A DNA stretch of 64,000 nt from Clostridia bacterium. Lineage in GTDB: Bacteria > Bacillota > Clostridia > UBA1381. The stretch lies in assembly GCA_045657705.1 (NCBI GenBank), contig JAZOTP010000045.1:9539-73538 (forward strand). The letters are read 5' to 3'. The notes beneath the pieces are model-generated. The model was not told where the DNA came from and did not search any database. It saw only the letters and a list, made by a program, of their open reading frames with translations. Below are positions 39,710 through 57,669 of the stretch, in pieces; within the stretch, counting starts at the first letter, position 1, and each line of letters opens with the position of its first letter. A program made the translations under genes and the position numbers.

Positions 39710-40750
39710 TTGGAAAAAATCATCAGTCTCGAAAATGTAGCTTTAGCCTTTGACGGAGAGAACATTTTAAATAACATTAATCTTGATATTTACGACAAGG
39801 AATTTGTCACCCTTCTCGGTCCTTCGGGATGCGGTAAAACTACAACTCTTCGTATCATCGGCGGTTTTTTGGAACCTGATTCGGGAGATGTTATTTTTGA
39901 CGGTGCAAGAATTAATAATCTTCCGCCGCATAAAAGAAACATAAATACCGTATTTCAGCGTTACGCTCTCTTTCCGCATCTTAATGTATATGACAACATT
40001 GCATTCGGCCTGAGAGTAAAAAAATTGCAGGAAGCAGAAATACGAACGCGTGTAACCGAAATGCTTAAGCTTGTAAATCTTACAGGCTTTGAGAAGCGTC
40101 CTGTTCAGCGTTTGTCAGGCGGACAGCAGCAGCGTGTTGCTATTGCACGTGCTCTTATTAACCGTCCCAGAGTATTACTTCTTGATGAACCTCTGGGTGC
40201 TCTTGATTTAAAGCTTAGAAAGGAAATGCAGATCGAGCTGAAGAAAATCCAGCAGAGTCTTGAAATAACCTTTATATATGTCACTCATGACCAGGAGGAG
40301 GCTCTTACAATGAGTGATACCGTTGTTGTAATGAACAACGGAGATATTCAGCAGATAGGAACGCCGCAGGATATTTATAACGAACCTGTTAATGCATTCG
40401 TTGCCGATTTTATTGGTGAAAGTAATATTATAGACGGAGTAATGAAAGAGGATTACTGTGTTATAATAAGCGGAAATGAATTTGAATGTGTGGATAAGGG
40501 ATTTGAAATGAATGAAAATGTTGATGTGGTTATAAGACCTGAGGACATTAAAATCACATCTCCCCAAAATGCAAAAATTACCGGAACAGTCGATACTGTA
40601 ACCTTTAAGGGTGTACATTATGAAATGCTTGTCAAATCTGAGCATTTTGACTGGCTCATACATTCAACAAAAGCAGCGGAGCCGGGTTCTGTAATAGGCA
40701 TGACCTTTGACCCCTTTGACATTCACATTATGAAGAAAACCGATAAATAG
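39710..40750 (+). CDS. potA: spermidine/putrescine ABC transporter ATP-binding protein
   Basis: GPSGCGKTT Walker A, the LSGGQQQR signature and LLLDEP. TTG start lies 7 nt after GGAGG. Confidence 0.92.
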
Positions 40751-40762
40751 GGGGTGGGTGAA

Positions 40763-41602
40763 ATGAATAATAATTCTGCATCAAAAAAGACACTTTGGCA
40801 ATATCTCATTTCTGCACCTTATATCTTGTGGATGATAATTTTTATTTTGGTGCCTCTGGCAATGGTTGTATATTTTGCATTGACAACCGCAGACGGTGCT
40901 TTTACACTTGAAAACGTAAAGGCGGTAGGTCAGTATACAAATATTTTTGTACGCTCGATTTATCTTGCACTTATTGCGACTGTGATATGTCTTGTTGTTT
41001 CATATCCCGTTGCATTTATACTTACAAGAATGGAAAGAAGTGTTCAGAGCACAATGCTTATGCTTGTAATGCTGCCCATGTGGATGAACTTTCTTTTAAG
41101 AACATACGCATGGATGACACTTTTGGGAAATAACGGAATTATTAATGTTATTCTTGAGCTTGTCGGAATAGGACCGCTTAAGCTTTTAAACACACAGGGA
41201 GCTGTTGTTCTGGGAATGGTTTACAATTATATTCCGTATATGATTTTGCCGCTTTATTCGGTAATGGTAAAGATAGATAAAAGTGTGATGGAGGCTGCAC
41301 AGGATTTGGGCTGTAACAGTATTGGAGTTTTGGCAAAGGTTGTAATACCGTTGAGTGTACCTGGTATCATTTCGGGTATTACCATGGTTTTTGTACCTGC
41401 TATAAGCACATTTATTATTTCCAAAATGCTCGGAGGCGGTTCGGAGCTATTAATCGGTGACCTGATTGAAATGCAGTTTTTAGGTACTGCGTATAATCCG
41501 AATCTTGGTGCTGCTATCTCGCTTGTGCTTATGGTTATTGTGCTTATTATTATGGCTGTAATGAACAAGTTCGGTGACAGTGATGAGACGGCATTGATAT
41601 AG
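40763..41602 (+). CDS. potB: spermidine/putrescine ABC transporter permease
   Basis: Six-TM permease with an EAAxDLG motif (MEAAQDLGC). Confidence 0.9.
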   Translation: MNNNSASKKTLWQYLISAPYILWMIIFILVPLAMVVYFALTTADGAFTLENVKAVGQYTNIFVRSIYLALIATVICLVVSYPVAFILTRMERSVQSTMLMLVMLPMWMNFLLRTYAWMTLLGNNGIINVILELVGIGPLKLLNTQGAVVLGMVYNYIPYMILPLYSVMVKIDKSVMEAAQDLGCNSIGVLAKVVIPLSVPGIISGITMVFVPAISTFIISKMLGGGSELLIGDLIEMQFLGTAYNPNLGAAISLVLMVIVLIIMAVMNKFGDSDETALI

Positions 41603-41614
41603 GGGGTATAGAAA

Positions 41615-42430
41615 ATGAAAAAATTGTCAAAATTATATCTTGCATTGGTATTTTTGTTTTTATACGCACCTATTTTTGTATTAGTGGTATTTTCTTTCAA
41701 TACTACAAAAAGCAGAACTGTATTTGAAGGCTTTACCCTTGATTGGTATATAAAGCTTTTTAATAATGAATTGATATTGGTTTCTTTGAGAAATACAATA
41801 ATTATAGCAACTATAGCATCGGTGGTTTCAACTATATTGGGAACGGCGGCGTCAATCGGATTTTCAAAGATGAAAAAGCTTCCTAAAACGCTTGCCATGA
41901 ATGTAAATAATATTCCTATTATTAATCCTGAAATAGTAACCGGTGTGTCACTTATGCTTCTTTTTGCTTTTTTCAGGGCAAGAATGCATTTTGAATTTGG
42001 ATTTGTAACCTTGCTTTTGGCTCATATAACCTTTGATGTTCCTTATGTGGTATTAAATGTTATGCCGAAGCTAAGACAGCTTGACCCTCATATTTATGAG
42101 GCTGCACAGGATTTGGGATGTAATCCCTTAAAAGCCTTTTTAAAGGTTGTAATGCCGGAAATATTACCGGGTGTTCTGTCGGGATTTCTGATGTGCTTTG
42201 CATATTCTCTTGACGATTTTGTAATAAGTTATTTTACAAGCGGTTCAAATTCACAGACGTTACCTATTACAATTTATTCTATGACCAGAAAAAAGGTAAG
42301 TCCTGAAATAAACGCACTTTCAACGATAATATTTATTGTTGTGGTAACGGTTCTTGTGATTAAGAATATTATTGAAAGAAAAAGCTTAAAACGTGTGAGT
42401 ATGATTACCTCGGGAGAGGAAAAAATATAA
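41615..42430 (+). CDS. potC: spermidine/putrescine ABC transporter permease
   Basis: Permease with a YEAAQDLGC motif. Confidence 0.9.
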   Translation: MKKLSKLYLALVFLFLYAPIFVLVVFSFNTTKSRTVFEGFTLDWYIKLFNNELILVSLRNTIIIATIASVVSTILGTAASIGFSKMKKLPKTLAMNVNNIPIINPEIVTGVSLMLLFAFFRARMHFEFGFVTLLLAHITFDVPYVVLNVMPKLRQLDPHIYEAAQDLGCNPLKAFLKVVMPEILPGVLSGFLMCFAYSLDDFVISYFTSGSNSQTLPITIYSMTRKKVSPEINALSTIIFIVVVTVLVIKNIIERKSLKRVSMITSGEEKI

Positions 42431-42433
42431 TTT

Positions 42434-43576
42434 ATGAAAGGGTTGATTTTATTGAAAAAATTTATTTCATTGACAATGTGTGCATTAATGACAGTCGGTG
42501 TACTTTCAGGCTGTGGAGGAAGCGGTAATGAACCTACAGTAACGGTTGAGGATACTGCATATTATGAAATATTCAAGGAACAGAATATATCAATTAATGT
42601 ATATAACTGGGGTGAATATATATCTGACGGAAGTGATCTGGATTTAATAGACGTAAATAAAGAGTTTGAGGCATTAACAGGGATTAAGGTTAATTATACT
42701 ACTTATGCCACAAATGAAGAGCTGTACGCAAAAATGAAGGGCGGAGCGGCTGATTATGACATTATAATCCCGTCTGACTATATGATTTCAAGAATGATTA
42801 AAGAAGATATGTTAGCTACTCTTGATTACAGTGAAATTCCTAATACTAAATATATAATGGACAACTTTAAAAATCTTGAATATGATCCTGATAATTCATA
42901 TTCTGTTCCGTACACATGGGGAACTGTTGGAATTATATATGACAAAAATGTTATAACCGATGAAAATATCGGATGGGATATTCTCTGGAATGAAGAATAT
43001 GCAGGAAATATTCTTATGTTCGATAACCCAAGAGATGCATTTGCAATTGCTGAAAATATGCTTGGATATTCATTGAACACTGAAAATCCTGATGAATTAA
43101 AGGCAGCCGCAGAAAAGCTTAAGGAACAAAAACCGCTGGTTCAGGCATATGTAATGGATCAGGTGTTTGATAAAATGGGAGCAGGGGAGGCTGTTGTTGC
43201 ACCGTATTATGCAGGTGATGCAGTAACACTTATGAATGATTATGACAATCTCGGATTTGCAATTCCTGAAAGCGGAACAAATATATTTGTTGATGCAATT
43301 TGTATTCCAAAAACATCACAGAATCAGGAAGCTGCAAAGATGTATATAAATTTCCTTTGTGAGCCTGAGGTTGGACTTTCAAACTGTGAAGCCATCGGAT
43401 ATTCAACGCCTAACTCAAAAACCTTTGAAATGCTTGATGATGATGTAAAAAACGATGGTATCTCATATCCCGATGAAGAATTCCAGAAGACAAAATGTAC
43501 TACATTTATAAATCTTTCAGATGAAGCGAATAAGCTTATGCAGGATTTATGGACTGAAATGAAGTCATCACAGTAA
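42434..43576 (+). CDS. potD: spermidine/putrescine-binding lipoprotein
   Basis: Lipobox LSGC and PotD-like translation. The TTG at 42452 (AAAGGG 9 nt upstream) is an alternative start giving MKKFISL. Confidence 0.88.
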   Translation: MKGLILLKKFISLTMCALMTVGVLSGCGGSGNEPTVTVEDTAYYEIFKEQNISINVYNWGEYISDGSDLDLIDVNKEFEALTGIKVNYTTYATNEELYAKMKGGAADYDIIIPSDYMISRMIKEDMLATLDYSEIPNTKYIMDNFKNLEYDPDNSYSVPYTWGTVGIIYDKNVITDENIGWDILWNEEYAGNILMFDNPRDAFAIAENMLGYSLNTENPDELKAAAEKLKEQKPLVQAYVMDQVFDKMGAGEAVVAPYYAGDAVTLMNDYDNLGFAIPESGTNIFVDAICIPKTSQNQEAAKMYINFLCEPEVGLSNCEAIGYSTPNSKTFEMLDDDVKNDGISYPDEEFQKTKCTTFINLSDEANKLMQDLWTEMKSSQ

Positions 43577-44714: not shown

Positions 44715-45593
44715 CTATTCATTATAAAATTTGTTGAATATTTTATTTGTCAGTGACATTTGTGTATCATCCGGAATGTGTTTTGGTAAATGATTTTCTA
44801 TTTCCAATGCCTCATATTTAGAACCTGCATAGTTGTGGTACGGTAACACCCGTACCTTTGTAAGGTTTTTAATTTCTGATAAGAATTTTGCGATTTGTTC
44901 TGCTTCATGGTCATTATATCCGGGAACGTACGGATATCTTACTTCAATTTTACAATTATTTTCATCAAGATATTTAATATTTTCAAGTATTTGTTCATTT
45001 GACTGTCCTGTACACTTGATATGCGTCTGTTCATCTATTGCTTTTATGTCATAAAGGAATATGTCTGTATAGGGAATAACCTTATCAAGCGCAGTTTTGG
45101 AAATAAAACCGCAGGTATCAACCGCAGTATGTATACCGTTTTCTTTAAGCTTTTTTAAAAGCTCTGCACAAAAATCCGCATGTAAAAGGCACTCGCCGCC
45201 CGAAAGGGTGACACCTCCGTTTGAATTGTCGTAAAAATCCTTATCTTCTAAAAGAATTGAAAGCAGTTCATCTACAGTCATTTCTTTTCCGTAAAAAGTC
45301 AGAGCATTACCTAAACATACATCAGCACATTTTCCGCAGGCAATACACTTGTTTCTGTCAAATGAATGCATATTTTCAGATATGCTGTGAGCAGAAACGG
45401 GACAAATACTTATACATTCTCCACAGCCTATGCACTTATATTCATAATATGCAATCTGAGGCTCCGGACTTATACCTTCGGGATTATGACACCATACGCA
45501 TTTTAAAGGACAGCCTTTAAAGAATACAGTGGTTCTTATCCCGTCACCGTCATGGACGGCAAATCTTTTTATTTCAAAAATTTTTGTTTTCAT
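44715..45593 (-). CDS. glycyl-radical enzyme activating protein (radical SAM)
   Basis: CPLKCVWCHNPE CxxxCxxC motif plus two ferredoxin-like clusters (CIGCGECISICP, CIACGKCADVC). The start overlaps the upstream stop (ATGA). Confidence 0.92.
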   Translation of the reverse strand: MKTKIFEIKRFAVHDGDGIRTTVFFKGCPLKCVWCHNPEGISPEPQIAYYEYKCIGCGECISICPVSAHSISENMHSFDRNKCIACGKCADVCLGNALTFYGKEMTVDELLSILLEDKDFYDNSNGGVTLSGGECLLHADFCAELLKKLKENGIHTAVDTCGFISKTALDKVIPYTDIFLYDIKAIDEQTHIKCTGQSNEQILENIKYLDENNCKIEVRYPYVPGYNDHEAEQIAKFLSEIKNLTKVRVLPYHNYAGSKYEALEIENHLPKHIPDDTQMSLTNKIFNKFYNE

Positions 45594-46297
45594 TTGTTAA
45601 CTCCTATTGTTTTTAAATATGCTTCAAAATAACGTTTTCCCAAAATTCTGTATGATTTTGAATCAAAGTGAATATCATCGCCTCTGTGAGTTAAATCTTT
45701 CGATTCTGCAAATCCACAATACGGAATTTTATCTGGCATATCGGAAAGTGCTGTATTTACAATGTCAAGATATTTAAGCGCTCCGTCCTGATATTTTTTT
45801 GCAAATGAACCCAGCTCTCCGACAATAACAGGAAGATTTTCATTTCCAAGCTCTTTTCTGAGAGTTGTAATCATCTTAATGAATCTTTGACTGTAGGTTT
45901 GTGCTTTTTCAATACAACGTGAATCATTTTCACCCTGATGCCACAGAATGCCAACAATTTCAGATGTTCGCTGAGCAAGCTTTGCATGAAATACAGCATT
46001 GTCATATAAAATCTCACCCGGCATCCACATAGATAACTCTGTTCCGCCGTCTGCACACGGTATTAGACCAATGTGTTCATTAAAACATTTTGCATATTCA
46101 TCAGCAAAAGAAGCAGAAAGTCCGACACCACTGTGAAAGTAACTGAATATTGCTCTGTCAGTGTTTATTGGTTCGCTCATCGGAATCCATTTTCCGTTTC
46201 TCATCATAAAACAGTTGTCGTTAATAATTTCGGGAACTTCGCCAAAATCCCCTCGTCCCGCCATGTTTGACTGTCCGATTAATAAAAATGATTTCAT
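45590..46297 (-). CDS. SASA/DUF303-type carbohydrate O-acetylesterase (sialate O-acetylesterase-like)
   Basis: LIGQSNMAGRG catalytic-serine motif and WHQGEND. AGGAGG RBS. Confidence 0.8.
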   Translation of the reverse strand: MKSFLLIGQSNMAGRGDFGEVPEIINDNCFMMRNGKWIPMSEPINTDRAIFSYFHSGVGLSASFADEYAKCFNEHIGLIPCADGGTELSMWMPGEILYDNAVFHAKLAQRTSEIVGILWHQGENDSRCIEKAQTYSQRFIKMITTLRKELGNENLPVIVGELGSFAKKYQDGALKYLDIVNTALSDMPDKIPYCGFAESKDLTHRGDDIHFDSKSYRILGKRYFEAYLKTIGVNK

Positions 46298-46310
46298 AAT
46301 TATATACCTC

Positions 46311-47207
46311 CTAATTACGGTTTCCTAAAATAATTCCCGATGAAATAAGTATAAATGCAATAAGATATTGAGGTTTTAAAATATCTTCACCAAGTAGAAC
46401 TGCACTGAATACGCAAGCAAAGAGCGGTTCTGAAAATTTAATTATAAACAGTTTGGAAAGGCTGCTGTTTTTAAGTACATAGTACCAGAGAATATAACCG
46501 GTAATTGATGCTGTACAGATATATGCAAATACCAAAAATGATTTTAAATTAAAGGTAAGCATATCCGCACCCATTGCATAAGCGCAGGCAACCAGCACTA
46601 TACCGCCGGTAAACTGCGACATGCCTGTAATCCGGAACGGTGAAGTTTGCTCTAACTTCAGCTTTGTGATTAAACTTGCAATTACTGTACATACAGATGC
46701 AAGGATTATAACTGTTTCGCCTACAGAAAAACTAAATCCTCCTGAACCGATATTTATAGCTATGATGCCGGTAAAGCCTATTAAAGCACCTATGATTTTA
46801 AGTACACTGAATTTTTCGCTCCTTATAAAAAGAAATGAAAAGCATACATAAAGCAATGTGCCGAGTTGTTTTATGATGGACGTCTTTGAACCGTCTGCCA
46901 GTGCTAAACCTATATATGTAAAAGTATAGTGAAGTACGATAGTGAACAGTCCGACGAGAAGTATATATTTAATATCTTTTTTGTCACCGGGCTTTTCTTT
47001 TTTTAAAATGCTGAAACCACCTACAAGTATTCCACATAGTGTAAAGCGAACTCCTGCAAACATTAGTATGTCGGGTATTGAGGATGAATCTATTTCAAAC
47101 ACCTGATACCCTATTTTGATAAATGGGAAGAGTGACCCCCAAAGTGCCATAACAATTAAAGCTAAAATTAATGATGTTATGTTTTGATTTTTTTTAGTTA
47201 TTTCCAT
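46311..47207 (-). CDS. DMT-superfamily (EamA-like) transporter
   Basis: Ten predicted TM helices in two EamA-like halves. Confidence 0.8.
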   Translation of the reverse strand: MEITKKNQNITSLILALIVMALWGSLFPFIKIGYQVFEIDSSSIPDILMFAGVRFTLCGILVGGFSILKKEKPGDKKDIKYILLVGLFTIVLHYTFTYIGLALADGSKTSIIKQLGTLLYVCFSFLFIRSEKFSVLKIIGALIGFTGIIAINIGSGGFSFSVGETVIILASVCTVIASLITKLKLEQTSPFRITGMSQFTGGIVLVACAYAMGADMLTFNLKSFLVFAYICTASITGYILWYYVLKNSSLSKLFIIKFSEPLFACVFSAVLLGEDILKPQYLIAFILISSGIILGNRN

Positions 47208-47265
47208 TTGTTTTCTCCTGTAAAAAATAGTTTGTATTCTCAGTAGCTAATGATTAACTTAATAA

Positions 47266-47901
47266 TCAAATTCCTATAGTATTTTCGGGAAGATTGAACA
47301 GTGCATTATAGTCAAGATTTTTAGCTTTTAAATTTAATGTATTTTCAATATGGGCTATAACATGATTTGTTATTGCTTCTGTTCCTTCTCTGGTATAATA
47401 ATGTGTTAAATCAGAGTGATACTCTACAGGTAAATTCACCATAAGAGAATATAAATCGTTTATCTCGCCGCCGAACTTTTTTACTATTTCGACTGCGGCA
47501 ACATTATATGCTTCGGTATCTTTATTATATCTTTTATGAGATGTAAACAATTCTTCCTGAACGGGTGTACTTGTTGCAAATATCATTTTTGCTTGAGGGA
47601 GAATAATTTTGATTAAATTGCATATTCTCTCAATATTGTTTTTATATTCGTCAAGAGAAACCAAATGCTTGCCGTCAAGCATGATAAGATCATCCCAAAG
47701 ACCGGCATTCCAGTGTATTAAATCAATATCATTCCCGCATTCTGTTTGGTTAACCCAATCTCGCAGATTTCTTATTATATATGAAGAAAATCTGCAGTTT
47801 TCTTGCGGATAATATACATTTGCAATATCCTCAAATGCCATTTTTACATATTTGTCATATCCTAATCTTATTGAATCGCCTATTAATAATATATTTTTCA
47901 T
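47266..47901 (-). CDS. SGNH/GDSL hydrolase
   Basis: LLIGDSIRLGY block I, a GLWD block and DLTHY block V. Confidence 0.75.
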   Translation of the reverse strand: MKNILLIGDSIRLGYDKYVKMAFEDIANVYYPQENCRFSSYIIRNLRDWVNQTECGNDIDLIHWNAGLWDDLIMLDGKHLVSLDEYKNNIERICNLIKIILPQAKMIFATSTPVQEELFTSHKRYNKDTEAYNVAAVEIVKKFGGEINDLYSLMVNLPVEYHSDLTHYYTREGTEAITNHVIAHIENTLNLKAKNLDYNALFNLPENTIGI

Positions 47902-47918
47902 AACTTGTAATTCCTTCT

Positions 47919-48779
47919 TTAAAATAAATAAGGCTTCCTGCCAGAACAGTTCATTTCTTTCAATATTAAAAAGCCTGAATTTTTATCGTTTATAATATCA
48001 GCGCTATAGCTGGCTGTAGTGATTGCAAGTATATCCATGTTCTGACCGCAAAATGCACAGCTTGTCGGTATTGTCGTCGGAACAGGGATATGTTCAACCA
48101 CCGACATTGAACAAGTATCAACAATAGCTACATGTCCTTTTCCCCAACAGCCAACATACAGATTATCATTGTTATCAATTGTAAAACCATCAACGCCCGG
48201 CACATTTAGTTCTCTGCCTGTAAAAGATATTTCACCGCTTATTTTATCAAAATTATATTCCTTTATAATCCGGGTATCGCTGTCTGTATGATAAAACCGT
48301 TTTTCATCAATCGACCATTCGAGTCCGTTGGATAAAATTAGATTATCCAATAAAACACGGACATTGCCGTTCTTGTCAATAGAATAGAGTTTGCCGTCTG
48401 TTTTATCCGAAACGCCTTTTCTTTTACCGCTTTGTGTTCCTACATAAATCCTGCCGTCGGGACCTACTTTCATATCATTGGCATATAAAATACTATATGC
48501 GGCGGTATTGTATAATTCTTCGGTGGTATCATCGTCTTTCAATATAAACACACCATCGGGGCGGGATACAATCAAACGATTTTCTTTATCAAATGCAAAG
48601 GCGGCAGCACCTGTTTTTAAAGATCTAACCTCAATTTTTTTTGTATCAATATCAAGCATACATATTTCGTTTCCGCCCATGCCATTTGTATAATATAAAC
48701 GGTTTTCGTACTGGTTCCATATAGGACCTTCTCCGATTATACATCTTTTGTCGGTTATAACTTTTATATCATTAAACAT
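47919..48779 (-). CDS. SMP-30/gluconolactonase/LRE-like beta-propeller protein
   Basis: IGEGPIWNQYENRLYYTN and repeated propeller blades. The ATG at 48779 lies 7 nt after an AGGAGC that overlaps the GRE stop. Confidence 0.8.
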   Translation of the reverse strand: MFNDIKVITDKRCIIGEGPIWNQYENRLYYTNGMGGNEICMLDIDTKKIEVRSLKTGAAAFAFDKENRLIVSRPDGVFILKDDDTTEELYNTAAYSILYANDMKVGPDGRIYVGTQSGKRKGVSDKTDGKLYSIDKNGNVRVLLDNLILSNGLEWSIDEKRFYHTDSDTRIIKEYNFDKISGEISFTGRELNVPGVDGFTIDNNDNLYVGCWGKGHVAIVDTCSMSVVEHIPVPTTIPTSCAFCGQNMDILAITTASYSADIINDKNSGFLILKEMNCSGRKPYLF

Positions 48780-48789
48780 AGTTTTGCTC

Positions 48790-51012
48790 CTATTGCAGGC
48801 TTTCTGCCTGCCGGATAAAGCCGTCCTGTTCAACCTTATTTATGTTATTCCAGAGCACGTTCCAGCCGCAGACTCTTATCTGCAAATCCTGATATTTTTC
48901 AGGATGTTTTTGTGCATCACGGAGCGTTTCGGCATCAAATACATTTATATGCATTGCGTGACCGCCACGTTTTATAAAGGTCATAAGTAATCCGTACATT
49001 GCATCTAATCCGTCATCTCCTTTAACTGCTGACGGAAGAAGTCCCAAATCAAGGCAGGCATCACCTGTAAATGCTGTTGCATCAATTTTTGTAACTGACA
49101 GGATTGCAGCAGTTGCACCCTCGCGGTTTTGTCCCATTGAAGCGGAACAGTTTTTTGAAAGCTCTTCACCTAATAATCTTCCGTTGGGCGATGCTGCTGT
49201 AACAGCTCCTTGTGTATATGACATTCTTGCTACATGAAAATTGCAGTTCCATTTTCCGCCTCTTTGTTTTGCGTTTGGTTTTCCGCATACATACGAGACA
49301 ACAAAATCTGAAATATCCTTAGCAAAGAAATCGGGTAAATCCTTATTGTTTCCGTATTTGTCCTTGTCATTGAAGAGTTGTTTTTGGAATTCTTCATATC
49401 CCTCAAAGTTTTTATCAAGAATATTCACAAATTCAGATAATGTAAGTATTTTTTTGTCATACACATATTTTTTTATTATTGTAAGTGAATCGGAAATATC
49501 TGCAATAAATCCAAAAGATATTACTGTGTTATTTGAGATTGCACCGCCGCCAAGAGCGTCTTTTGCCTTTTTGATACAGCTTGGATATGTAGCAGAAAGC
49601 ATAGACTGCGGATTGATATAGGTCAGGTAATCCTCATAACAGTTTACTATATCCATTGTACAGTCCACGATATAACATAACTGTTTTTTATATTCCTTAT
49701 AAAATTCTTCAAATGTTGCAAAACTTTCGGGTGCAGGACTTTTTAAGCCTGCGAAGTGTCCTGTTACTCCATCACAACCCTCATGGAGAGCGTATTCCAA
49801 TGGCTTTAGTAAATTCAGATAATTCATTCCGCAGCCCATTGAGCCCTGAGTTGAGTATTCATAACAACCTTTTACATTACAAAGTCTGGCCTGCTCTTCG
49901 GTAGCACCTGCATTAACAAGTGCTTTTCTGATTGTTGAGTCTGATACAAATACTATACAGTTATTTCCGCGGCGTATCATATCAAGAGCCTTTAGAGTGA
50001 AATCCTTTGGTGTACTGTCTGCAAGCTTAATCTGAATTTTAGGATTGTAAATCTTCATTTTGTCATATACATCTAAAAATAGATAAGAAAGTTCATTTAT
50101 TTCTGTTTCTTCATTTTCTTTACAACCTCCTAAAAATACAGGTTGATTCCAGTAATTTCCAATGGCTGTAAATTGAAGGAAAAAATAAGCAAGGTCAGTG
50201 CGGATTTCTTCTTCCGTAACACCGTTTTTAATATCGTCTAAATAAAACTTATAAAAAAGTCTGTCAAAATTTGAAAGTGAGCGCACCTGCAGTCCCTCAA
50301 TATGCTCTGAAATCATAAAATAAATATAATCAACGAGCAAGGCTTCATAAAAAGTGGATGGAGGATTGTTTTTTATATTTTTTAAAGCCTCTGCCATTCT
50401 TTCAGAACCGGAAGTTTTTTGTGCAAGGGAGGAAAGACGGTCAATAAAATCAATAATTGCTGTGTATGTAATTTTAATTCCCTCAAAAAATGCTTCTTCT
50501 TCGTTTGTAAGTTTTCTTGCCAAACGAGCATTTTGGCTTTCTTCAAGTAAGCCCGAAAAGCCTAAATCAAAAATTCTGTCCCAAACAGGTACACTGTGGT
50601 CGAAATCAGGCCACATGGTTACAATCCCCGCACTTTCAAAATAATTACGTTTTTCTCCTGTTTCGGGAATGATTTCACAAAAAACTTCATGACTCCATAA
50701 GTTAATTAATGTGGAGTTCAGTGGTCTGTCAATCATATTAATTGCAGGAAAACGGTCATGCATATCGCATGATATTTTTGTGTTTTCCAAAATGTATGAA
50801 AAAGCCTTTGCTTTTCGTATTGAGTGTGGCAAATCACTTATTTCTTTATCGTTTAATAAAATATTTTCTTTTATTTTTTCGCCGTCAATGCCTGTTTCAT
50901 CAGAGAAGATTTCATCTCTTCTCATAAATCTCTGAAAGCTGTTAAAAGGCTTTGACTGGTCATGGTATTTATTCATAATATACTCATAATCTGAATTTTT
51001 GATGTATTCCAT
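48790..51012 (-). CDS. glycyl radical enzyme of the C-x-E (1,2-eliminase-like) type, substrate unknown
   Basis: C-terminal glycyl-radical motif IRVCGWNV, a thiyl loop KGCYEYS (Cys-x-Glu), 740 aa. AGGAG lies 8 nt before the ATG. Confidence 0.9.
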   Translation of the reverse strand: MEYIKNSDYEYIMNKYHDQSKPFNSFQRFMRRDEIFSDETGIDGEKIKENILLNDKEISDLPHSIRKAKAFSYILENTKISCDMHDRFPAINMIDRPLNSTLINLWSHEVFCEIIPETGEKRNYFESAGIVTMWPDFDHSVPVWDRIFDLGFSGLLEESQNARLARKLTNEEEAFFEGIKITYTAIIDFIDRLSSLAQKTSGSERMAEALKNIKNNPPSTFYEALLVDYIYFMISEHIEGLQVRSLSNFDRLFYKFYLDDIKNGVTEEEIRTDLAYFFLQFTAIGNYWNQPVFLGGCKENEETEINELSYLFLDVYDKMKIYNPKIQIKLADSTPKDFTLKALDMIRRGNNCIVFVSDSTIRKALVNAGATEEQARLCNVKGCYEYSTQGSMGCGMNYLNLLKPLEYALHEGCDGVTGHFAGLKSPAPESFATFEEFYKEYKKQLCYIVDCTMDIVNCYEDYLTYINPQSMLSATYPSCIKKAKDALGGGAISNNTVISFGFIADISDSLTIIKKYVYDKKILTLSEFVNILDKNFEGYEEFQKQLFNDKDKYGNNKDLPDFFAKDISDFVVSYVCGKPNAKQRGGKWNCNFHVARMSYTQGAVTAASPNGRLLGEELSKNCSASMGQNREGATAAILSVTKIDATAFTGDACLDLGLLPSAVKGDDGLDAMYGLLMTFIKRGGHAMHINVFDAETLRDAQKHPEKYQDLQIRVCGWNVLWNNINKVEQDGFIRQAESLQ

Positions 51013-51133
51013 ACAAAACTCTCCTTTTATTTTTTTTAATAATTATAGTACAATCCTAAAAAAAAGTAAATGGAATAAACAAAACACTTGACGAAAACAA
51101 AACAGTATTATATAATAAAAACGGTGATTTGTT

Positions 51134-51922
51134 ATGAATGATAATTGGAAAAACGCAATAGTGACAAAAATTGCACTTGCAGTATATGTTGCACCGGGAA
51201 CGGGGAGCGATGTACATAACAACCGTCCTTTTCACGGATTGGTTATAAATACAGATAATTCGGTAAAGGAATATTTATTTTCTGACGGTACTGTTTTAAA
51301 AACAGAGTCATATGATGTTTTCTACCTACCTAAAGGTTCAAGCTACAAGGTAAATTCTTTGGTAAAAAGCGGATGCTATGCTATAAATTTTGATATGGCA
51401 CAACCGTTTTGCGATAAGCCGTTTGTAATCAGTTTCAGAAACAGTGAAAATATATTGAAGCTTTTTAAGGAATCGGAAAATATGTGGAGACAACAGTCAT
51501 CATTTTATAATGCGACTGTAATAAGGAATGTTTATGATATAATTTTACTGATGAACAGAGAAGTGCAGAAAAAATATATGCCGGGTGAGCATGAGATGAT
51601 TATACAGCCGGCTGTGGAAAAAATCAAAAATGAATTTACTAAAAGTGAACTTTCGGTAAAAGAGCTTGCTGATGTCTGCTCAATAAGTGAAGTATATTTT
51701 CGCAAGCTTTTTATAAACAAATTCGGAGTTACTCCTAAAGAATATATAATTATGATGCGTATTAATTATGCGAAGCAACTACTTGAGTCGGGTCAGTTTT
51801 CGGTAAGTGAGACGGCAGGTCTTTGCGGATATTTTGAACCATGTCATTTTTCAAGAGAGTTTGCAAAAAGAGAGGGAATTCCTCCTGCTAAGTATAAAAA
51901 GAAGAGTATTTTATTAAACTGA
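51134..51922 (+). CDS. AraC-family transcriptional regulator, divergent from the GRE operon
   Basis: N-terminal cupin-like domain and C-terminal double HTH (SVKELADVCSISEVYFRKLF...GYFEPCHFSREF). Confidence 0.88.
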   Translation: MNDNWKNAIVTKIALAVYVAPGTGSDVHNNRPFHGLVINTDNSVKEYLFSDGTVLKTESYDVFYLPKGSSYKVNSLVKSGCYAINFDMAQPFCDKPFVISFRNSENILKLFKESENMWRQQSSFYNATVIRNVYDIILLMNREVQKKYMPGEHEMIIQPAVEKIKNEFTKSELSVKELADVCSISEVYFRKLFINKFGVTPKEYIIMMRINYAKQLLESGQFSVSETAGLCGYFEPCHFSREFAKREGIPPAKYKKKSILLN

Positions 51923-52187: not shown

Positions 52188-52612
52188 ATGAGTATTCAAA
52201 TTACATATACCGCGGACGGAGTAAAAATATATCCTCTTCATAGACATAAAAATTATGAAATTATGCTTTAGTTGTGGGGAACAGAGAATCTTAAAACTCC
52301 CGTGGAAGACTTGAGTCGACCCCCCCAAAAAAAAGTAAAACTTTGTATTGGAAAAGTTGAAAATATGAATTTCCGCATTAGAGGGTTGTTCTATTTGCTT
52401 TTAGACTCTGTTTTAAGTACAGACAAAGCTACAGAATCTACCCATGATATTGCCTTCAAAAAAGCTAAACTTCTGTTAAAAAAACCAGAAGATATTCCCA
52501 TAAGCCAAATTGCGCGTGAGTGCTCTGTCAGCGAAAGTGGACTGCGTAAAATTTTCGGTGATAAAATCGGAATGTCTCCAACGCAATTCAGATTAAAAGA
52601 AAAATTTAATCA
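52188..52612 (+). pseudogene. AraC-family regulator remnant with an in-frame TAG and 3' truncation
   Basis: MSIQITYTADGVKIYPLHRHKNYEIML then TAG (52269-52271), then the same frame continues to ISQIARECSVSESGLRKIFGDKIGMSPTQFRLKEKFNQ. The second HTH is missing, and beyond about 52612 the frame is antisense to the neighbouring gene. Confidence 0.8.
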
Positions 52613-53929
52613 AATGCGGATACTTTCTTTTTGCCAAGGATTTATACCATTTGCATTAAGGTTTGAAACCGCTTCACCATATGCAGAGCCATGCTCCGAA
52701 TGGAGAAGAGCAATGCCCGAATGCATTCTTTCGGAAAGTACAAGTTCAGTGGAGTAACGATTAAGCATAGGGAAAAGTTTTTTCTTTTCTTCTAACTCCA
52801 GCGAAGGAGTCCCATCATAGTGATAAAACCCGCAATTGTCAGGGATAGGAGTCCCTTCATACGGGTAGTCACCCTTCCATGCATAATAGCATATACCCTT
52901 AAATCCTGCTCCAAGTGTCATATAGGTTTGTGCATATATTTTTCTTGCGGGTGCTTTAACGCGGGCATCTGCCTCAATCATCCAAACACGTTCGCCCTTT
53001 ACTTCTGCCGCAGATGCTGCTGAGTCAAGAGCGTATAAAGCCGAATAAATGTCTGAACCCACTAAATTTATATAGTGTGTCAGGCCTAAAACATCCATAT
53101 CATCATCAAAATAACTCACTCCCATAGAAATAGGTTTGTTGCCTGCCTCCACACAGGTGTAGCAAGTATAAGTTTCAATTGCAGGAGCAGCTTCTTTTGC
53201 GAAAGCTGATGTTTTGTTTAAAAAGTCTGACAGTGCATTCATTGAAAATATTCTGAAACGAATCTATTCCTCTATACTATCCATATCCGTAGGCTTTTCA
53301 GACGGGGGAACGTAGCTTTCAGCTTCGTTTTCGGACATATATCCCTTTTCAACAAGCCACTTGCGATAAGCGTTAAGCGCCAGGGGGTGATAATCAAAAA
53401 CATCATTTCTCGGATAGTGAGGTTCATTATATATTTGGTATGATACTACAGCAGGAAATTGAGTAAAGTGCTTGGCAAGAGCCTTTGTAGCATCTCGGTC
53501 ATCCCTTAGTATCCCTTTGTGGTGTAAACAGAACTCAATAAAAACACTCCAAGCCTTTTTAGATTCTTCGCCTTTGTGATTTATCATTTCGTAACCCGTA
53601 TTGCCTCTTAAATTTGTAATATACCCGTTCAGACGAACACTCAGGGCAATGTTTCTTTTTTCACATTCATTTGCCATATCATCTATAAAGTGTGTGTTGG
53701 TTTTCACTTCGTTATTATCCAAAAAAACTTCTCCTAATGCCGCTGTGCGCAAAAAGTTAAAGCCCATTTGTTCCATCTGCTTTAAATCTTTTTTCATTTC
53801 CCAAAGTCTGTCTCCTTCGGGGGGAACGGGGAATTTAGCCGGATGGAAAGACGGGTAGTAAGATACCCCGAGTGCTAATTTCGGAATACCATTATCATAC
53901 AAAATTCCATTTTTCATTGTATACGACAT
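52610..53929 (-). pseudogene. clan GH-A (GH42-like beta-galactosidase) gene, frameshifted and 3'-truncated
   Basis: The two ORFs (53264-53929 and 52610-53242) are in different frames. The first carries YQIYNEPHYP (acid/base region) and the second VWMIEADA (nucleophile region). Only about 430 codons remain, against roughly 650 or more expected for GH42. Confidence 0.7.
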
Positions 53930-53940
53930 AATTTAACCTC

Positions 53941-54840
53941 CTATTTCAGTAAAAGAATTGCAATAAACGCAATACACATACCAATTATACATCGTTTAGT
54001 AATTTTTTCTTTAAAAAAGATGGCAGACATCAAAGCGCTTAAAATCAGACCGCCGGACTGATAAACCGGGTAAATTTGTGTTGCCAGCAGATATTTGGTG
54101 GCCAAAGCTTTGAAATATGAATTTAAAAACAGACAGACTGACATTGCAAAAATCACCAAAAAGGTTCCTTTAAAAAGATTCTTATATTGAACAGAAGCAT
54201 CCTTTCTGGAAAAACCGATAAAATATGCACCCAGCAAAATAGTGGCAGAAACGTATGTAATAAAGTTCAAAAGAGCCACACTGCCTTCTGAATAGTGAGT
54301 AAAAAGCTTTTGTGAAAAATCAAGTAAGCCGCTTGACAGACCGCAAAGGAAAAGGAAAATTGATGCAGTTTTTGTAAGTTTCCCTTTCGTGGTGTTGTTA
54401 TATGAAATCATGATTAAAATAGCAATTACCACAAGAATAACACCGAGCATTTGTAGGGCGGATGCCTTTTCACCGAAAAGAACAAAACTGAGAAGCAATG
54501 TAACAATAACACCAAACATTTGAGCAATACTGACTAACATAAAAGCTCCATATTTAATTGCTAAAAGCCAGGTTATCACAAATACCTATATACTTATTCC
54601 GGCAAGAATACCAAAAATAAGACCAGATGTATCCACCTTTACAGCTTGTTCTGTTATCAGAATACCAAACCCTATAAAAATACAAATCAGCATTCTTATT
54701 AAATTCATAAATACTGAACTGTTATAGTTTGAAGCGTGCTTGCTTAAAAGCTTCCCTAAAAAACCTTTTGTTGAGCCCGCAAGCAGAGAAATTAACACAA
54801 AACAGTAGCCCATAACATCACCTCCTTTATTGCACTGCAA
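53941..54840 (-). pseudogene. DMT/EamA-like sugar transporter split by a frameshift
   Basis: ORFs 54586-54840 (about 3 TM) and 53941-54579 (about 7 TM) together make one 10-TM protein but lie in different frames, 7 nt apart. Confidence 0.65.
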
Positions 54841-54941
54841 GTAATGATTTGTAACTTTATTTCATTATAATACAAACTATTGACAATATCAATAAAATAT
54901 TGTATCATAAACATATAAAATTGTATCATCAGGAGGAGTGT

Positions 54942-55691
54942 ATGGATCGTATAAAGCTTTTAGTATGTGTTAAGGCTTTTCGGGGAAAATTTAAGATGGA
55001 ATCATTCTGTGGTTCTGACGATATTTTTGTTCTTGTGCAAGATGGTTCTTTTTCTTTCGAAAGCTCGTCGGGAAAACAAATTGTTCAAAAAAATGAGGGA
55101 GCCCTGTTTCGCCGTAATGTGTTTTATCAAAGGAAGGTTTTAACACCGGTGACAATGTATTTATTCCGATATCATTCGGATATGTTGTGCTTTAATGATG
55201 AAAAGGTAGTTTTTCATAATGTCGAAAGGATATTATCCACTCTGGACTTGCTTGATAAAATGGAGAAGATACCGTTTACAGACCTTCATATGTACAGAAA
55301 GATGCTGTTTTGCGATATAGTTATGCAACATCATATAGAAAGCGGAATCATACATTTGGATGTTCAGCCTCAGGATAAAACAGTTAATAAAGCTATTGCA
55401 ATAATGAATCAAAATTATGGTAAAAAACTTAATATGGATGAACTTGCTGATGTATGCGAACTTTCTCACGCGCAATTTTACAGACGGTTTTATCGTTCAA
55501 TGAGTTGCTCACCGTATAACTATATTTTAAAATTGAGATTGCAAAAAGCCAAAGACTTGCTTGCAAATAGTAGCTTGCCCATCTATGAAGTAGCGTCTTT
55601 CTGCGGTTTTGAAGATGAATATTATTTCAGTAATTTTTTTAAGAAACATATGGGAATTTCGCCAACTGCGTTCAGAAAGTCGTTGTTTTAA
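54942..55691 (+). CDS. AraC-family transcriptional regulator
   Basis: AGGAGG lies 5 nt before the ATG at 54942. C-terminal double HTH (MDELADVCELSHAQFYRRF...GFEDEYYFSNFFKKHMGISP). Confidence 0.85.
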   Translation: MDRIKLLVCVKAFRGKFKMESFCGSDDIFVLVQDGSFSFESSSGKQIVQKNEGALFRRNVFYQRKVLTPVTMYLFRYHSDMLCFNDEKVVFHNVERILSTLDLLDKMEKIPFTDLHMYRKMLFCDIVMQHHIESGIIHLDVQPQDKTVNKAIAIMNQNYGKKLNMDELADVCELSHAQFYRRFYRSMSCSPYNYILKLRLQKAKDLLANSSLPIYEVASFCGFEDEYYFSNFFKKHMGISPTAFRKSLF

Positions 55692-55770: not shown

Positions 55771-55962
55771 ATGCTCGCCCATAATTAATATAGGCGAGCA
55801 CTCTTTTATTTATTTTTCTCCGCCTCAGCTAACATATTCTCAATAAATATGCCGTATCCTCTGGTTGGATCATTCACAAACACGTGCGTTACAGCTCCCA
55901 CAATTCGGCCATTTTGAAGTATCGGCGAACCCGACAGGATTGATGTCAACATGGGACAACAA
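55771..55962 (-). repeat. spoIVB 3'-end fragment, copy 1 (last ~50 codons plus terminator hairpin)
   Basis: Encodes [51 protein letters not shown] then stop (55806), followed by hairpin GCTCGCC..GGCGAGC. There is no N-terminal S55 or PDZ part. Confidence 0.8.
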
Positions 55963-56199: not shown

Positions 56200-56385
56200 T
56201 TAGTATGACTGTACCAACTCTAATAACTCAATTGGTGTTGTAACAACATCAATGGTATCTCCTTTTTCATCAAAAAATTCAACCTCAAAGCATTTTCCGT
56301 CATATTCCAATACAATTGTTCCGGTCGTACCAGCCGTCAAATCGCTAAAGTCTCTTTTCAATCTTACAACATCTAATTCTTTCAT
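56200..56385 (-). CDS. DUF4926 family protein (putative immunity/antitoxin-like partner)
   Basis: MKELDVVRLKRDF...GTTGTIVLEY...FEVEFFDEKGDTI is a typical DUF4926 pattern. It starts 4 nt after the upstream stop. Confidence 0.7.
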   Translation of the reverse strand: MKELDVVRLKRDFSDLTAGTTGTIVLEYDGKCFEVEFFDEKGDTIDVVTTPIELLELVQSY

Positions 56386-56389
56386 AGTA

Positions 56390-56788
56390 TCAATCCTTCT
56401 TTCTCGGATATACCGTTACAATTTTATAGGTAACTCGTCCGTTATCTTTTTGAATAACAACCACTACATTTGCTTTAACTTTTCCACCGTTTTTGCCTAT
56501 AAGTTCTGTGTTATACGTATGTTTTGTTCCATACGGAGTGGTAGATGTTTTTGTTGGGGTTTTACCTTTTATAGATTCAACAACATTTTTATGAAAAATC
56601 TTTGAATCATTTTTGCCATACACCAATACATCTTTCATAAACTTTGCTTTCGGTCCGCCTTGAGGATGGTTTGAATTTAGCAAATATCCTTGTGTTTTCT
56701 TTTGGCTATATCTTACGTCGCCAGCTTTTGAAACAGGCGGATTACTTCCTTTTGTATTTGCATAATTCCCTGAAATTCCGGCACCCAT
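56390..56788 (-). CDS. DUF6883 family protein (putative toxin/adaptor-like partner)
   Basis: GYLLNSNHPQGGPKAKFM...YGTKHTY...VVVIQKDNG...KIVTVYP matches the DUF6883 pattern by eye. The ATG at 56788 overlaps the DUF4417 stop (TAATG). Confidence 0.6.
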   Translation of the reverse strand: MGAGISGNYANTKGSNPPVSKAGDVRYSQKKTQGYLLNSNHPQGGPKAKFMKDVLVYGKNDSKIFHKNVVESIKGKTPTKTSTTPYGTKHTYNTELIGKNGGKVKANVVVVIQKDNGRVTYKIVTVYPRKKD

Positions 56789-57459
56789 TAAGCAGACCTC
56801 CTTTTTTGAATGGAAGTCCAATCGGGATAGTGAACAAACTTTGCTCTATCCTTAACCTTTGTAAAAATACTGTCAGGCATACCACCATAAACAATTACAA
56901 CTTCGGGTTCGAGTTCTTCAAGCATTGCTTCTAAACCTTCGGCAAAATATATTTTGTTTTCTTTACTCTTTATACATCCGTAAGTGCCGATTGAAACAAT
57001 GCTGTGTTTTGGAACGCCTAAAAAAGCAAATTTTTCGGGTAGTTCTATGGTTGTGTAACTTCTTTCATCGCCCCAACGTATATTAGGAATAACATAAAGC
57101 CCCTTTGATTGAAGATAATGCCCAATTGCACGATTCATATATGTATTTGCAATCTGTAATACAAGTGGCATATCTCTGTAAAGTGAGCAATCAGGAGAAA
57201 TAACTCCTTGAAATTTCTTTAAGCAATCAAAATGTTCTTTTGCAGCAGTTAATACTGTTGCGAAATTTTTGTCGTGCTCATAGAAATGAACAAACTCATT
57301 GTAATTGTTACTGCGATTCTTTTTCGAAAAAGGAATTAACTCGGATGGTATAATTATCTTGTCCGATTTTTTAATGTGAGGGATTTCTAAAAGCCCATCA
57401 AAGAAAGCACCGCACACAAGTTCGGGATTAAACCCATCATCAATCTTATTTTTTAACAT
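56788..57459 (-). CDS. DUF4417 family protein (phage/mobile-element associated)
   Basis: AAAGGA lies 6 nt before the ATG at 57459. Has a FVHFYEHDKNF-type motif. Confidence 0.6.
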   Translation of the reverse strand: MLKNKIDDGFNPELVCGAFFDGLLEIPHIKKSDKIIIPSELIPFSKKNRSNNYNEFVHFYEHDKNFATVLTAAKEHFDCLKKFQGVISPDCSLYRDMPLVLQIANTYMNRAIGHYLQSKGLYVIPNIRWGDERSYTTIELPEKFAFLGVPKHSIVSIGTYGCIKSKENKIYFAEGLEAMLEELEPEVVIVYGGMPDSIFTKVKDRAKFVHYPDWTSIQKRRSA

Positions 57460-57533
57460 AATTAATCCTTTCTGCTGCTTTTTGTAGCTAAAAAATTTGA
57501 TTTTTTTACCTTGCCTGATTGACAAAGTGGAAA

Positions 57534-57582
57534 GGATATGTTAAAATATACATACGCTAATAGGTATATGTTTAACATATCC
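57534..57582. repeat. 18-19 bp inverted repeat (hairpin or operator)
   Basis: GGATATGTTAAAATATAC, a 12-nt spacer, then GTATATGTTTAACATATCC (one indel). It lies between the ImmA remnant and DUF4417. Confidence 0.6.
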
Positions 57583-57669
57583 AAGATTGAACACATGGAT
57601 TAGTTGCTGGTAACAACTTTTCTGATGTGTTTTTTCTTTTTTATCAAAACAATCATAAGCATCATCCTT

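Follow-up and report, generated by a model that had tools for sequence, protein, structure and literature searches.

A glycyl radical enzyme cassette with lactonase, O-acetylesterase and transporter partners in Clostridia: a putative radical 1,2-eliminase of carbohydrate-derived substrates

Glycyl radical enzymes (GREs) drive major anaerobic gut reactions, including the formation of trimethylamine, H2S, p-cresol and skatole and the fermentation of hydroxyproline (Hyp), and to our knowledge only a few dozen have been characterized. Here we analyze a GRE operon and its divergent AraC-family regulator in a 64,000-nucleotide stretch of DNA (the window) from a Clostridia bacterium (GTDB lineage UBA1381; assembly GCA_045657705.1, contig JAZOTP010000045.1, positions 9,539–73,538). 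The locus is best read, with a probability of roughly 0.55, as an AraC-controlled, self-contained catabolic cassette in which the GRE would act as a radical 1,2-eliminase on a carbohydrate-derived molecule, with a lactonase, two esterases and a transporter as helpers. By sequence comparison, the GRE carries the Cys/Glu/His set of C–O-cleaving GREs but has a different predicted substrate pocket. No characterized GRE resembles its family in sequence or context, and what appears to be new is an eliminase-type GRE with a new predicted substrate class and partner set.

Fold, class and catalytic residues

The window GRE has a PFL-like barrel domain and a C-terminal glycyl radical domain with the RVxG motif. 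Its thiyl loop, KGCYEYS, contains Cys383 and Glu385 (GCYE is residues 382–385) and its glycyl loop, IRVCGWNV, contains Gly716; both motifs had been named in an earlier interpretation of the locus (the sequence-only reading) and both are present in the translation. Cys-x-Glu on the Cys loop is the motif of C–O-cleaving eliminases and isomerases (PMC13450708). His139 falls in the His column of alignments with propanediol dehydratase (PD) and A. fulgidus PFL2 (HMMER), matching by offset PD His166 and glycerol dehydratase (GD) His164, and in that of E. coli YbiW His165 and PflD His156 in a MAFFT alignment that reproduces the published YbiW Cys441/Glu443. Among 118 clade representatives of 650–810 aa, Cys383 is conserved in 118, Gly716 in 117, His139 in 115 and Glu385 in 111. 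C–O-cleaving 1,2-elimination chemistry is proposed because these catalytic residues are conserved.

An AlphaFold2 model of the GRE (predicted local distance difference test score, pLDDT, 92.4; predicted template modeling score, pTM, 0.91) matches solved GREs in Foldseek with probability 1.00, giving template modeling (TM) scores of 0.82–0.87 to HypD, PD, GD and CutC at 20–25% identity. It also superposes on A. fulgidus PFL2, HpzG, PflD, HplG, IseG, HpsG, IslA and YbiW with TM scores of about 0.8–0.87 and 20–25% identity. The fold matches C–O and C–N eliminases as well as sugar isomerases, and these uniform values place the GRE roughly equidistant from all characterized eliminases and isomerases. 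HypD is the best solved relative by sequence (PDB search, E 6.7e-75), with a match that covers only residues 291–737. Scores against NCBIfam equivalog models are 305 bits for HypD (NF043068, cut-off 1100), 203 for CutC (cut-off 1050) and 215 for HpsG (cut-off 1000); those against the PFL2-3 subfamily TIGR01774 and the YbiW/PflD-type model PRK09983 are 314 (cut-off 678) and 213 bits (cut-off 1109). Model scores, the PDB search and Foldseek identities all place the GRE outside any cluster with a characterized enzyme such as HypD or PD, and its earlier description as an uncharacterized Cys-x-Glu eliminase-type GRE stands: it is below every equivalog cut-off and has Cys383-x-Glu385.

A diversified clade of short GREs

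Sequence searches assign the window GRE to a large, diversified and uncharacterized clade of short GREs with the signature GCYE / R(V/L)CGW. The best 150 matches in an exhaustive search of 50%-identity representatives score 255–875 bits; HypD scores 256 bits in the separate PDB search, and about 140 clusters at 50% identity score closer to the window GRE than HypD does. Representatives of at least 650 aa among these best 150 matches include 105 with GCYE and 96 with R(V/L)CGW. His139, Arg244 and Asp250 are clade-wide in the 118 representatives, and positions 241–242, 286–290, 386–398 and 592–599 differ between subfamilies. Closer relatives form more than 120 clusters (90% identity) that are 69–81% identical to the window GRE; almost all are 732–757 aa long, and their members, labeled ‘hypothetical’ or ‘PFL family’, belong to uncultured Clostridia or Ruminococcaceae. 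Scanning species-representative genomes gives 80 loci with GREs 50–78% identical to the window GRE, nearly all in Clostridia metagenome-assembled genomes (MAGs), many of which were sampled from the guts of goat, sheep, roe deer, water deer, yak and buffalo. The window GRE family, as delimited by identity, spans 50–81% and occurs in at least 80 species-level genomes, almost all of them of uncultured animal-gut Clostridia.

Tandem short-clade GRE paralogues, two or three per genome and 27–60% mutually identical, occur in many genomes, as in L001 (14437–19523), L053/L054, L045, L064/L065, L118 and L121. They often share one activase, each has its own AraC regulator, and their arrangement suggests rapid diversification of substrate specificity.

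Predicted substrate pocket

Pocket residues were mapped from HMMER alignments to solved GREs and from the MAFFT alignment with YbiW, PflD and canonical representatives, using residue roles for GD, PD, HypD and CutC from the literature. Gln242 aligns with GD Ser282 (presumably HypD Asp278 and CutC Thr334), Asn289 with GD Tyr339, Gly395/Met396 with the GD Asp447 region, Tyr398 with HypD Tyr450, His593 with GD Tyr640 and Ala595 with HypD Thr645; Arg244 is a one-residue insertion that has no equivalent in solved GREs. Arg596 or His593 might correspond to Arg678 of IslA, which binds sulfonate. The presumed Hyp-binding residues Asp278, Phe340 and Thr645 of HypD become Gln242, Asn289 and Ala595 in the window GRE, and Ser282, Tyr339, Asp447 and Tyr640 of GD become Gln242, Asn289, Gly395 and His593. 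Scores and residues argue against identity as a glycerol, propanediol or hydroxyproline dehydratase.

Asn, Gln, His, Tyr and Trp are plentiful in the predicted pocket. The family signature of this pocket comprises His139, Gln242, Arg244, Asn286-Tyr-Trp-(Asn/Gly)-Gln290, Cys-Tyr-Glu, Met396-Asn-Tyr398, His593-Val-Ala-Arg596, Ser598 and Tyr599, and is nearly invariant in 78 full-length family members, with and without accessory genes, which points to what is apparently one isofunctional family.

Operon layout and partner proteins

The operon comprises six intact minus-strand genes that run from 51012 to 44715, and the regulator is the divergent plus-strand gene (Table 1; ORF list and translations). 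Gaps in the order GRE/SGL/SGNH/EamA/SASA are 7, 17, 58 and 13 nt, and the SASA and activase genes overlap by 4 nt. As listed, the SGL open reading frame (ORF) extends over 47919–48833, with its upstream end at TTG 48833; its start is most likely ATG 48782, giving 287 aa, because relatives measure 282–289 aa, and a 7-nt gap would therefore follow the GRE stop with no overlap between the two genes. Sigma-70-like hexamers are present on both strands of the intergenic region, as consensus matches only, and spo0A lies 264 nt downstream of the activase (Pfam, NCBIfam).

Table 1. Features of the GRE locus, with positions in the window.
Feature	Position	Strand	Basis
AraC-family transcription regulator, divergent	51134–51922	+	HTH_18 E 3.9e-18; HTH_AraC E 8.8e-11 (Pfam)
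AraC–GRE intergenic (promoter) region, 121 nt	51013–51133		Sequence read
GRE, 740 aa	48790–51012	-	PFL-like PF02901 E 1.7e-93; Gly_radical PF01228 E 3.3e-22
SMP-30/gluconolactonase-like (SGL) six-bladed propeller hydrolase, 287 aa	47919–48782	-	PF08450 SGL E 6.9e-49
SGNH/GDSL-type esterase, cytoplasmic, 211 aa	47266–47901	-	Weak Pfam match, PDB 4H08, conserved blocks
Drug/metabolite transporter (DMT)/EamA-family membrane transporter, 298 aa	46311–47207	-	Two EamA repeats, E 7e-35 (Pfam)
SASA (DUF303) carbohydrate O-acetylesterase, cytoplasmic, 235 aa	45590–46297	-	PF03629 E 5.4e-55, full length
Radical-SAM GRE-activating enzyme, two auxiliary ferredoxin-type cluster motifs, 292 aa	44715–45593	-	TIGR02494 341 bits, cut-off 174

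The sequence-only reading is borne out in most of this layout: all seven genes are intact in the order and at the coordinates that it gave, six of them on the minus strand, with catalytic motifs present; the activase that it credited with two auxiliary clusters has two CxxCxxCxxxC motifs; and the AraC gene that it placed about 120 bp upstream is 121 nt away. The ‘tight spacing or overlaps’ that it described hold for the short gaps and the 4-nt overlap; the GRE/SGL overlap of the listed ORFs is probably not real. It had also noted that hallmark partners of known GRE pathways are missing, and no microcompartment, aldehyde dehydrogenase, sulfite reductase or P5C reductase gene is present in the operon or among the window ORFs of at least 150 aa that were scanned; small shell genes elsewhere in the window were not exhaustively searched.

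In addition to its auxiliary motifs, the activase contains CPLKCVWC (Cx3Cx2C), and it scores below the HypD, CutC and HpsH activase equivalog cut-offs (NCBIfam). The SGL protein would be, by its residues, a metal-dependent SMP-30 lactonase with predicted metal-ligand columns intact. Its best PDB match is regucalcin (E 3.4e-25), and alignment to regucalcin 4GNB and 3G4E shows that it keeps the Glu in GEGP, the Asn in SNGLEW and the Asp in VDGFTID; we take these columns to be the SMP30 divalent-metal ligands Glu18, Asn154 and Asp204. The earlier SGNH call is weak by Pfam (21.7 bits, gathering cut-off 32.9) and is secured by the match to PDB 4H08 (E 5.7e-9) and by blocks that are invariant in 11 orthologues: G8-D9-S10 (GDS), HWN-G-WD including N65, and D164-x-x-H167. 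The SASA protein has the GQSN (nucleophile) and C-terminal DDIH (DxxH) motifs, and its best PDB match is 1ZMB, an ‘acetylxylan esterase related enzyme’ (E 5.4e-51). Neither the two esterases nor the lactonase has a signal peptide, and all three retain the residues for catalysis or metal binding. The EamA/DMT transporter has no equivalog assignment (NCBIfam).

A conserved core with optional modules

Neighboring genes were counted with the window proteins as queries against the ORFs of every locus (simple ORF caller, BLAST thresholds); the denominator is the 55 species loci that have at least 4.5 kb downstream of the GRE. The activase occurs downstream of the GRE in 44 of the 55, and a divergent AraC orthologue (31–58% identity) lies upstream in 40. 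SGL is found in 17 loci, EamA in 15, SASA in eight and SGNH in seven. At least one of these four accessory genes is present in 26 loci (one gene in 11, two in ten, three in four, and all four in one), in the interval from GRE to activase and on the same strand as the GRE; their order varies, and identity to the window proteins is 40–76%. In most loci with SGL, this gene comes immediately after the GRE. The complete set occurs in L087, in the order GRE-SASA-SGL-EamA-SGNH-activase, with identities to the window proteins of 67% (GRE), 56% (SGL), 65% (EamA), 63% (SASA), 48% (SGNH) and 69% (activase). Recurrence of the same four neighbor families in other species shows that they are partly conserved with the GRE elsewhere. 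As judged from this census, the conserved unit is AraC, GRE and activase; lactonase, esterase and transporter modules join that core optionally but in specific association with it. Genes for Zn-ADH/PIG3, SDR, FAD_oxidored and AP_endonuc_2 proteins occur near the cassette in only 3–7 loci each and are heterogeneous.

Divergent SMP-30-like genes also follow GRE-activase pairs in three loci of other subfamilies (L091, L114 and L117; hidden Markov model search), whose GREs are only 34–43% identical to the window GRE, and EamA genes likewise recur in other-subfamily GRE loci. Between GRE and activase in L001 (12225–12512; also in L002, L003 and L018) there is a 95-aa ORF in which 31 residues of the window EamA are matched at 65% identity. 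This ORF is apparently what remains of an accessory gene since lost, consistent with modules that are gained and lost.

Fusions of clade GREs to carbohydrate-active domains

Several long clade GREs are fused to an N-terminal domain: an AXE1/CE7 (carbohydrate esterase family 7) acetyl-xylan esterase in P0168 and P0176, a SASA domain that is 38% identical to the window SASA in P0184, PF06439 in P0189, a GH2 (glycoside hydrolase, GH) beta-mannosidase-like domain in P0207 and a GH78 rhamnosidase-like domain in P0229. At the DNA level, one uninterrupted 1537-aa ORF (L094:2438–7051) joins a GH5-like domain to a GRE, L137 has a split version of the P0208 fusion, and an AXE1 gene directly follows the GRE in L104; a metagenome scan with P0184 for the SASA-GRE fusion matched the GRE part only. 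The AXE1-, SASA-, PF06439- and GH5-fused GREs share the pocket core Gln242, Arg244, NYW(G/N)Q and His593-x-Ala-Arg596, with differences at peripheral pocket positions; P0176 departs from this core at two columns, and the GH2 and GH78 fusions lack the His-x-Ala-Arg core. These carbohydrate-active enzyme (CAZyme) fusions, together with SMP-30-like and EamA genes in other subfamilies, imply that coupling of the sub-clade to acetylesterases, glycosidases, SMP-30 hydrolase and DMT transporters predates the window family. The link to esterases and carbohydrates that was drawn earlier is strengthened by the SASA-GRE, AXE1-GRE and GH5-GRE fusions and adjacencies.

Proposed function and its alternatives

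In the proposed mechanism, the dedicated radical-SAM activase would install a glycyl radical on Gly716, and a Cys383 thiyl radical would take H from an OH-bearing carbon. Glu385 would deprotonate the OH at that carbon, His139 would protonate the vicinal oxygen leaving group (OH or OR), and the alpha-carbonyl radical so formed would regain an H atom. The substrate would be a small molecule of carbohydrate origin, in the most likely case a monosaccharide or sugar acid set free from acetylated plant glycans; its carbohydrate nature is suggested by the partners, the fusions and the polar predicted pocket. Candidates include pentoses or hexoses of acetylated xylan or mannan as well as uronic acids, sialic acids and the less common sugars of pectin. 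The DMT permease may carry substrate or product across the membrane, the two cytoplasmic O-acetylesterases may strip acetyl groups that would block the vicinal diol, and the SMP-30 lactonase may interconvert a lactone and its open acid. In the favored variant, the GRE would abstract the anomeric H and eliminate the 2-OH to give a 2-deoxy-aldonolactone, which the lactonase would then open. In glucose radiolysis, C1 radicals lose water to give 2-deoxy-gluconolactone. This order, in which the GRE makes the lactone, seems at least as likely as one in which a lactone is opened first and is slightly favored because fused or neighboring CAZyme partners deliver neutral reducing sugars, because the cassette has no other lactone-forming enzyme (no dehydrogenase), and because spontaneous lactone hydrolysis explains a dispensable lactonase. 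A far more tentative extension, which we consider speculative, is that the window GRE and the whole ‘Gln242 / NYW(G/N)Q / His-x-Ala-Arg’ sub-clade are radical carbohydrate-active enzymes that abstract the anomeric C1-H from a freed, deacetylated sugar and eliminate its 2-OH to produce a 2-deoxy-aldono-lactone for SMP-30. If true, sugar would reach 2-deoxy sugar acid by a redox-neutral route and through a distinct type of GRE reaction; no biological description of either was found.

Several observations weigh against the catabolic reading. All four accessory genes are missing from 29 of the 55 loci, and also from the closest relative (81% identity), which has AraC, GRE and activase only. Apart from SpoIVB synteny, no conserved downstream pathway genes were found beside the cassette by neighbor clustering in 80 loci and a Pfam census of 113 flanking proteins. 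Pocket residues rest on alignment to solved GREs and not on coordinates, which makes their orientations, above all those of Arg244 and Arg596, tentative, and invariant Arg596 and His593 could bind a carboxylate instead, which would favor a sugar-acid substrate and a lactone that is opened first. Fusions P0168, P0176, P0184, P0189, P0207, P0208 and that of L094 have signal-peptide- or lipoprotein-like N-termini, e.g., MKRYFLAAVGLGLVGAAVAAACGE; an exported fusion GRE would be separated from its cytoplasmic radical-SAM activase, so that its activation there is hard to explain, which weakens the fusions as simple Rosetta stones. In the sequence-only reading, the GRE type, the carbohydrate/esterase link and the co-occurrence of neighbors hold up, the seven-gene operon as a conserved unit gives way to an AraC-GRE-activase core, and the proposed substrate, an acetylated lactone or polyol, is still a guess.

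The reverse order of steps is possible, although we think it unlikely: an imported O-acetylated sugar-acid lactone would be deacetylated and opened by SMP-30, and the GRE would dehydrate the resulting aldonic or uronic acid to a 2-keto-3-deoxy acid for a KDG kinase and KDPG aldolase encoded elsewhere. In non-phosphorylative Entner-Doudoroff-type pathways, SMP-30 lactonases act ahead of the dehydratases; Arg596 and His593, on a strand that borders the pocket of solved GREs, could anchor a carboxylate; and a KDPG aldolase (37597–38238) and a KDG-kinase-like PfkB (38268–39299) are encoded 5–7 kb away in the window. However, spo0A and an ABC transporter separate these KDG genes from the operon and they are not conserved neighbors, the cassette contains no lactone source, and O-acetylated aldonolactones are not known to be plentiful substrates in the gut. 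Sub-clade GREs that have this pocket core are fused to or adjoin CE7, SASA and GH5-like domains, whose products are neutral reducing sugars and not acids, and the Arg596 column is also Arg in the CAZyme fusions, so it need not mark a carboxylate. More doubtful still is a role of the cassette in detoxifying or modifying a secondary metabolite of plants or fungi that is not a carbohydrate and has acetyl-ester and lactone groups, with the DMT protein as an exporter. The hosts are herbivore-gut bacteria, the DMT protein's named NCBIfam matches, which all fall far short of cut-off, are to exporters (for example YedA and YddG), SMP-30/PON-type enzymes hydrolyze many non-sugar lactones, and no assimilation genes are conserved beside the cassette. 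Against this, the esterases belong to carbohydrate esterase families and the closest solved relative is annotated as acetyl-xylan-esterase-related, the sub-clade fusions are to CAZyme domains, and the residues that enrich the predicted pocket are like those of sugar-binding sites.

Two alternatives remain. That the four genes between GRE and activase are unrelated passengers, inserted by chance at a recombination hot spot, is very improbable. The cassette does sit in the spoIVB–spo0A gap, where islands pile up, and more than half of the loci counted lack helper genes (29 of 55), but these four families turn up repeatedly, have diverged about as much as the GRE has (as in L087) and, where present, are encoded on its strand and within the GRE-activase interval, across many species and in differing orders. 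A rough estimate puts the chance expectation for a lactonase there far below one locus; one clade GRE carries a fused SASA domain, and SGL is found again with distant subfamilies. Least credible of all is that the GRE is a divergent hydroxyproline, glycerol or propanediol dehydratase, a lyase of choline or isethionate, or an anhydro-sugar-phosphate isomerase. In NCBIfam and PDB, GRE and activase match HypD and its activase best, and the Cys-x-Glu motif and His are held in common; yet scores lie far under every equivalog cut-off, identity to all solved GREs is 20–25%, the presumed GD and HypD substrate contacts are replaced by Gln242, Asn289, Gly395, His593 and Ala595, about 140 clusters at 50% identity are nearer to the window GRE than HypD is, and there is no phosphotransferase system (PTS), aldolase, microcompartment or P5C-reductase context.

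Relation to known systems

Characterized GRE eliminases include GD, PD, HpfG, HypD, HpyG, HpzG, CutC, IslA/IseG and HpsG, characterized isomerases include HplG, YbiW and PflD, and other types are decarboxylases, X-succinate synthases, formate lyases and AAREs (June 2026 review, PMC13450708). Whole GRE clades lack validation (PMC13450708). Full-text literature searches found no paper that links a GRE with lactonases, carbohydrate esterases or glycosidase fusions, and none that describes the window GRE family. The window GRE shares with GD (1R8W), PD (5I2G) and HypD (6VXC) the ten-stranded barrel fold (TM 0.82–0.87), the Gly loop, the Cys-x-Glu loop, the general-acid His column and an activase type with two auxiliary clusters, and the same radical elimination mechanism would be expected. 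It differs in being only 20–25% identical to them and about 50–100 residues shorter, in a Cys loop that reads GCYE rather than GCVE, in its RVCGW Gly loop, in the extra clade-wide Arg244 and, by alignment, in replacement of all substrate-contact positions. Its cassette lacks microcompartment and aldehyde-processing genes and has esterases, a lactonase and a DMT transporter as partners instead. A 14-residue deletion before GNYWNQP further distinguishes it from canonical GREs, YbiW and PflD (MAFFT).

YbiW and PflD are C–O lyases of 1,5-anhydroglucitol-6-P and 1,5-anhydromannitol-6-P and the only characterized sugar-ring GREs outside ribonucleotide reductases (PMC13450708). They resemble the predicted chemistry of the window GRE in H abstraction at a carbinol carbon, vicinal C–O cleavage by Cys-x-Glu and a His at the His139 column. 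They are only 21–22% identical to it, however, and of the pocket columns compared, only the catalytic ones agree. In E. coli, YbiW and PflD have a PTS and fructose-6-P aldolase context and phosphorylated substrates; the window cassette lacks a PTS, kinase and aldolase, and no PTS or aldolase was found in the 80 related loci either.

Two carbohydrate systems resemble the partner set. Oxidative sugar pathways (SMP-30 gluconolactonase or xylonolactonase with an aldonate dehydratase) likewise place an SMP-30 metal-dependent lactonase beside a water-removing enzyme. They start with a sugar dehydrogenase and use enolase-superfamily or IlvD-type dehydratases, whereas the window cassette has no dehydrogenase, its dehydrating enzyme would be a radical enzyme and its host is a strict anaerobe. 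Intracellular deacetylation of imported acetylated xylo- or manno-oligosaccharides (CE7 AXE1, SGNH Axe2-type and SASA/1ZMB-type enzymes) has its parallel in the cytoplasmic SASA and SGNH esterases without signal peptides and in the CE7 and SASA domains fused to sub-clade GREs. Known systems of this kind feed ordinary isomerase and kinase sugar pathways. None coupled to a GRE appears in the June 2026 review (PMC13450708) or was found in full-text literature searches.

Genomic surroundings

The order in relatives is SpoIVB > AraC < GRE ... activase. The window has no full-length spoIVB, though spo0A lies directly downstream of the GRE activase, and has three copies of the spoIVB 3' end (S55 peptidase, last ~36–45 codons; 55815–55961, 59051–59197 and 62013–62159), which are 73–87% mutually identical at the DNA level and bracket ~3-kb islands. 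An exact 49-nt repeat occurs at 59007–59055 and 61968–62016. In L001, a full S55 gene and a 48-aa fragment bracket another AraC-regulated island. The spoIVB–spo0A gap looks like an integration hot spot that accumulates AraC-regulated catabolic cassettes. A second divergent AraC gene (54900–55691, +) faces apparently broken minus-strand genes in the region 52272–55691: an EamA split into 84 and 212 aa, and a GH42-like fragment of 221 aa followed by a 210-aa ORF without a Pfam match; a truncated AraC helix-turn-helix (HTH) piece lies at 52272–52757 (+). This region looks like a decaying sister cassette, or possibly reflects assembly frameshifts. Between two of the spoIVB-3' repeats, the island 56200–59000 contains DUF4417 (56788–57525) and several small ORFs, including one (58233–58538) that is XRE-type HTH-like by eye. 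It looks like a mobile-element or prophage remnant, and no integrase was seen in it.

A KDPG/KHG aldolase and a KDG-kinase-like PfkB (37597–39299, 5–7 kb from the operon) are followed by an ABC transporter at 39710–43576 (an ATPase with a TOBE domain, two permeases and one solute-binding protein). The aldolase and PfkB could take up a 2-keto-3-deoxy acid product; they are not conserved cassette neighbors. The surroundings are rich in carbohydrate-related genes, and other window genes encode a GH127 beta-L-arabinofuranosidase (32369–34180, -), a PF12831 FAD-dependent oxidoreductase (59211–60767, -), a PocR-AraC regulator (61106–61969, +) and a GH10 xylanase (62165–63493, -). FAD-dependent proteins that resemble the PF12831 family by sequence occur within about 8 kb of the cassette in seven related loci.

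Significance

The locus marks one unvalidated clade of GREs, with at least about 105 clusters (50% identity) that have GCYE; Clostridia of ruminants and the hindgut carry it in abundance. The minimal cassette of three genes, the four helper enzymes that recur and the natural fusions with acetylesterase or glycosidase domains provide a handle on this clade. Enzymology could gain from it a new way to deoxygenate sugars without oxygen. Should the substrate be a sugar from plants, radical C–O cleavage would join the reactions of fibre degradation, with a bearing on rumen and hindgut carbon flow and on the annotation of many MAG proteins now labeled ‘pyruvate formate lyase family’ or ‘hypothetical’.

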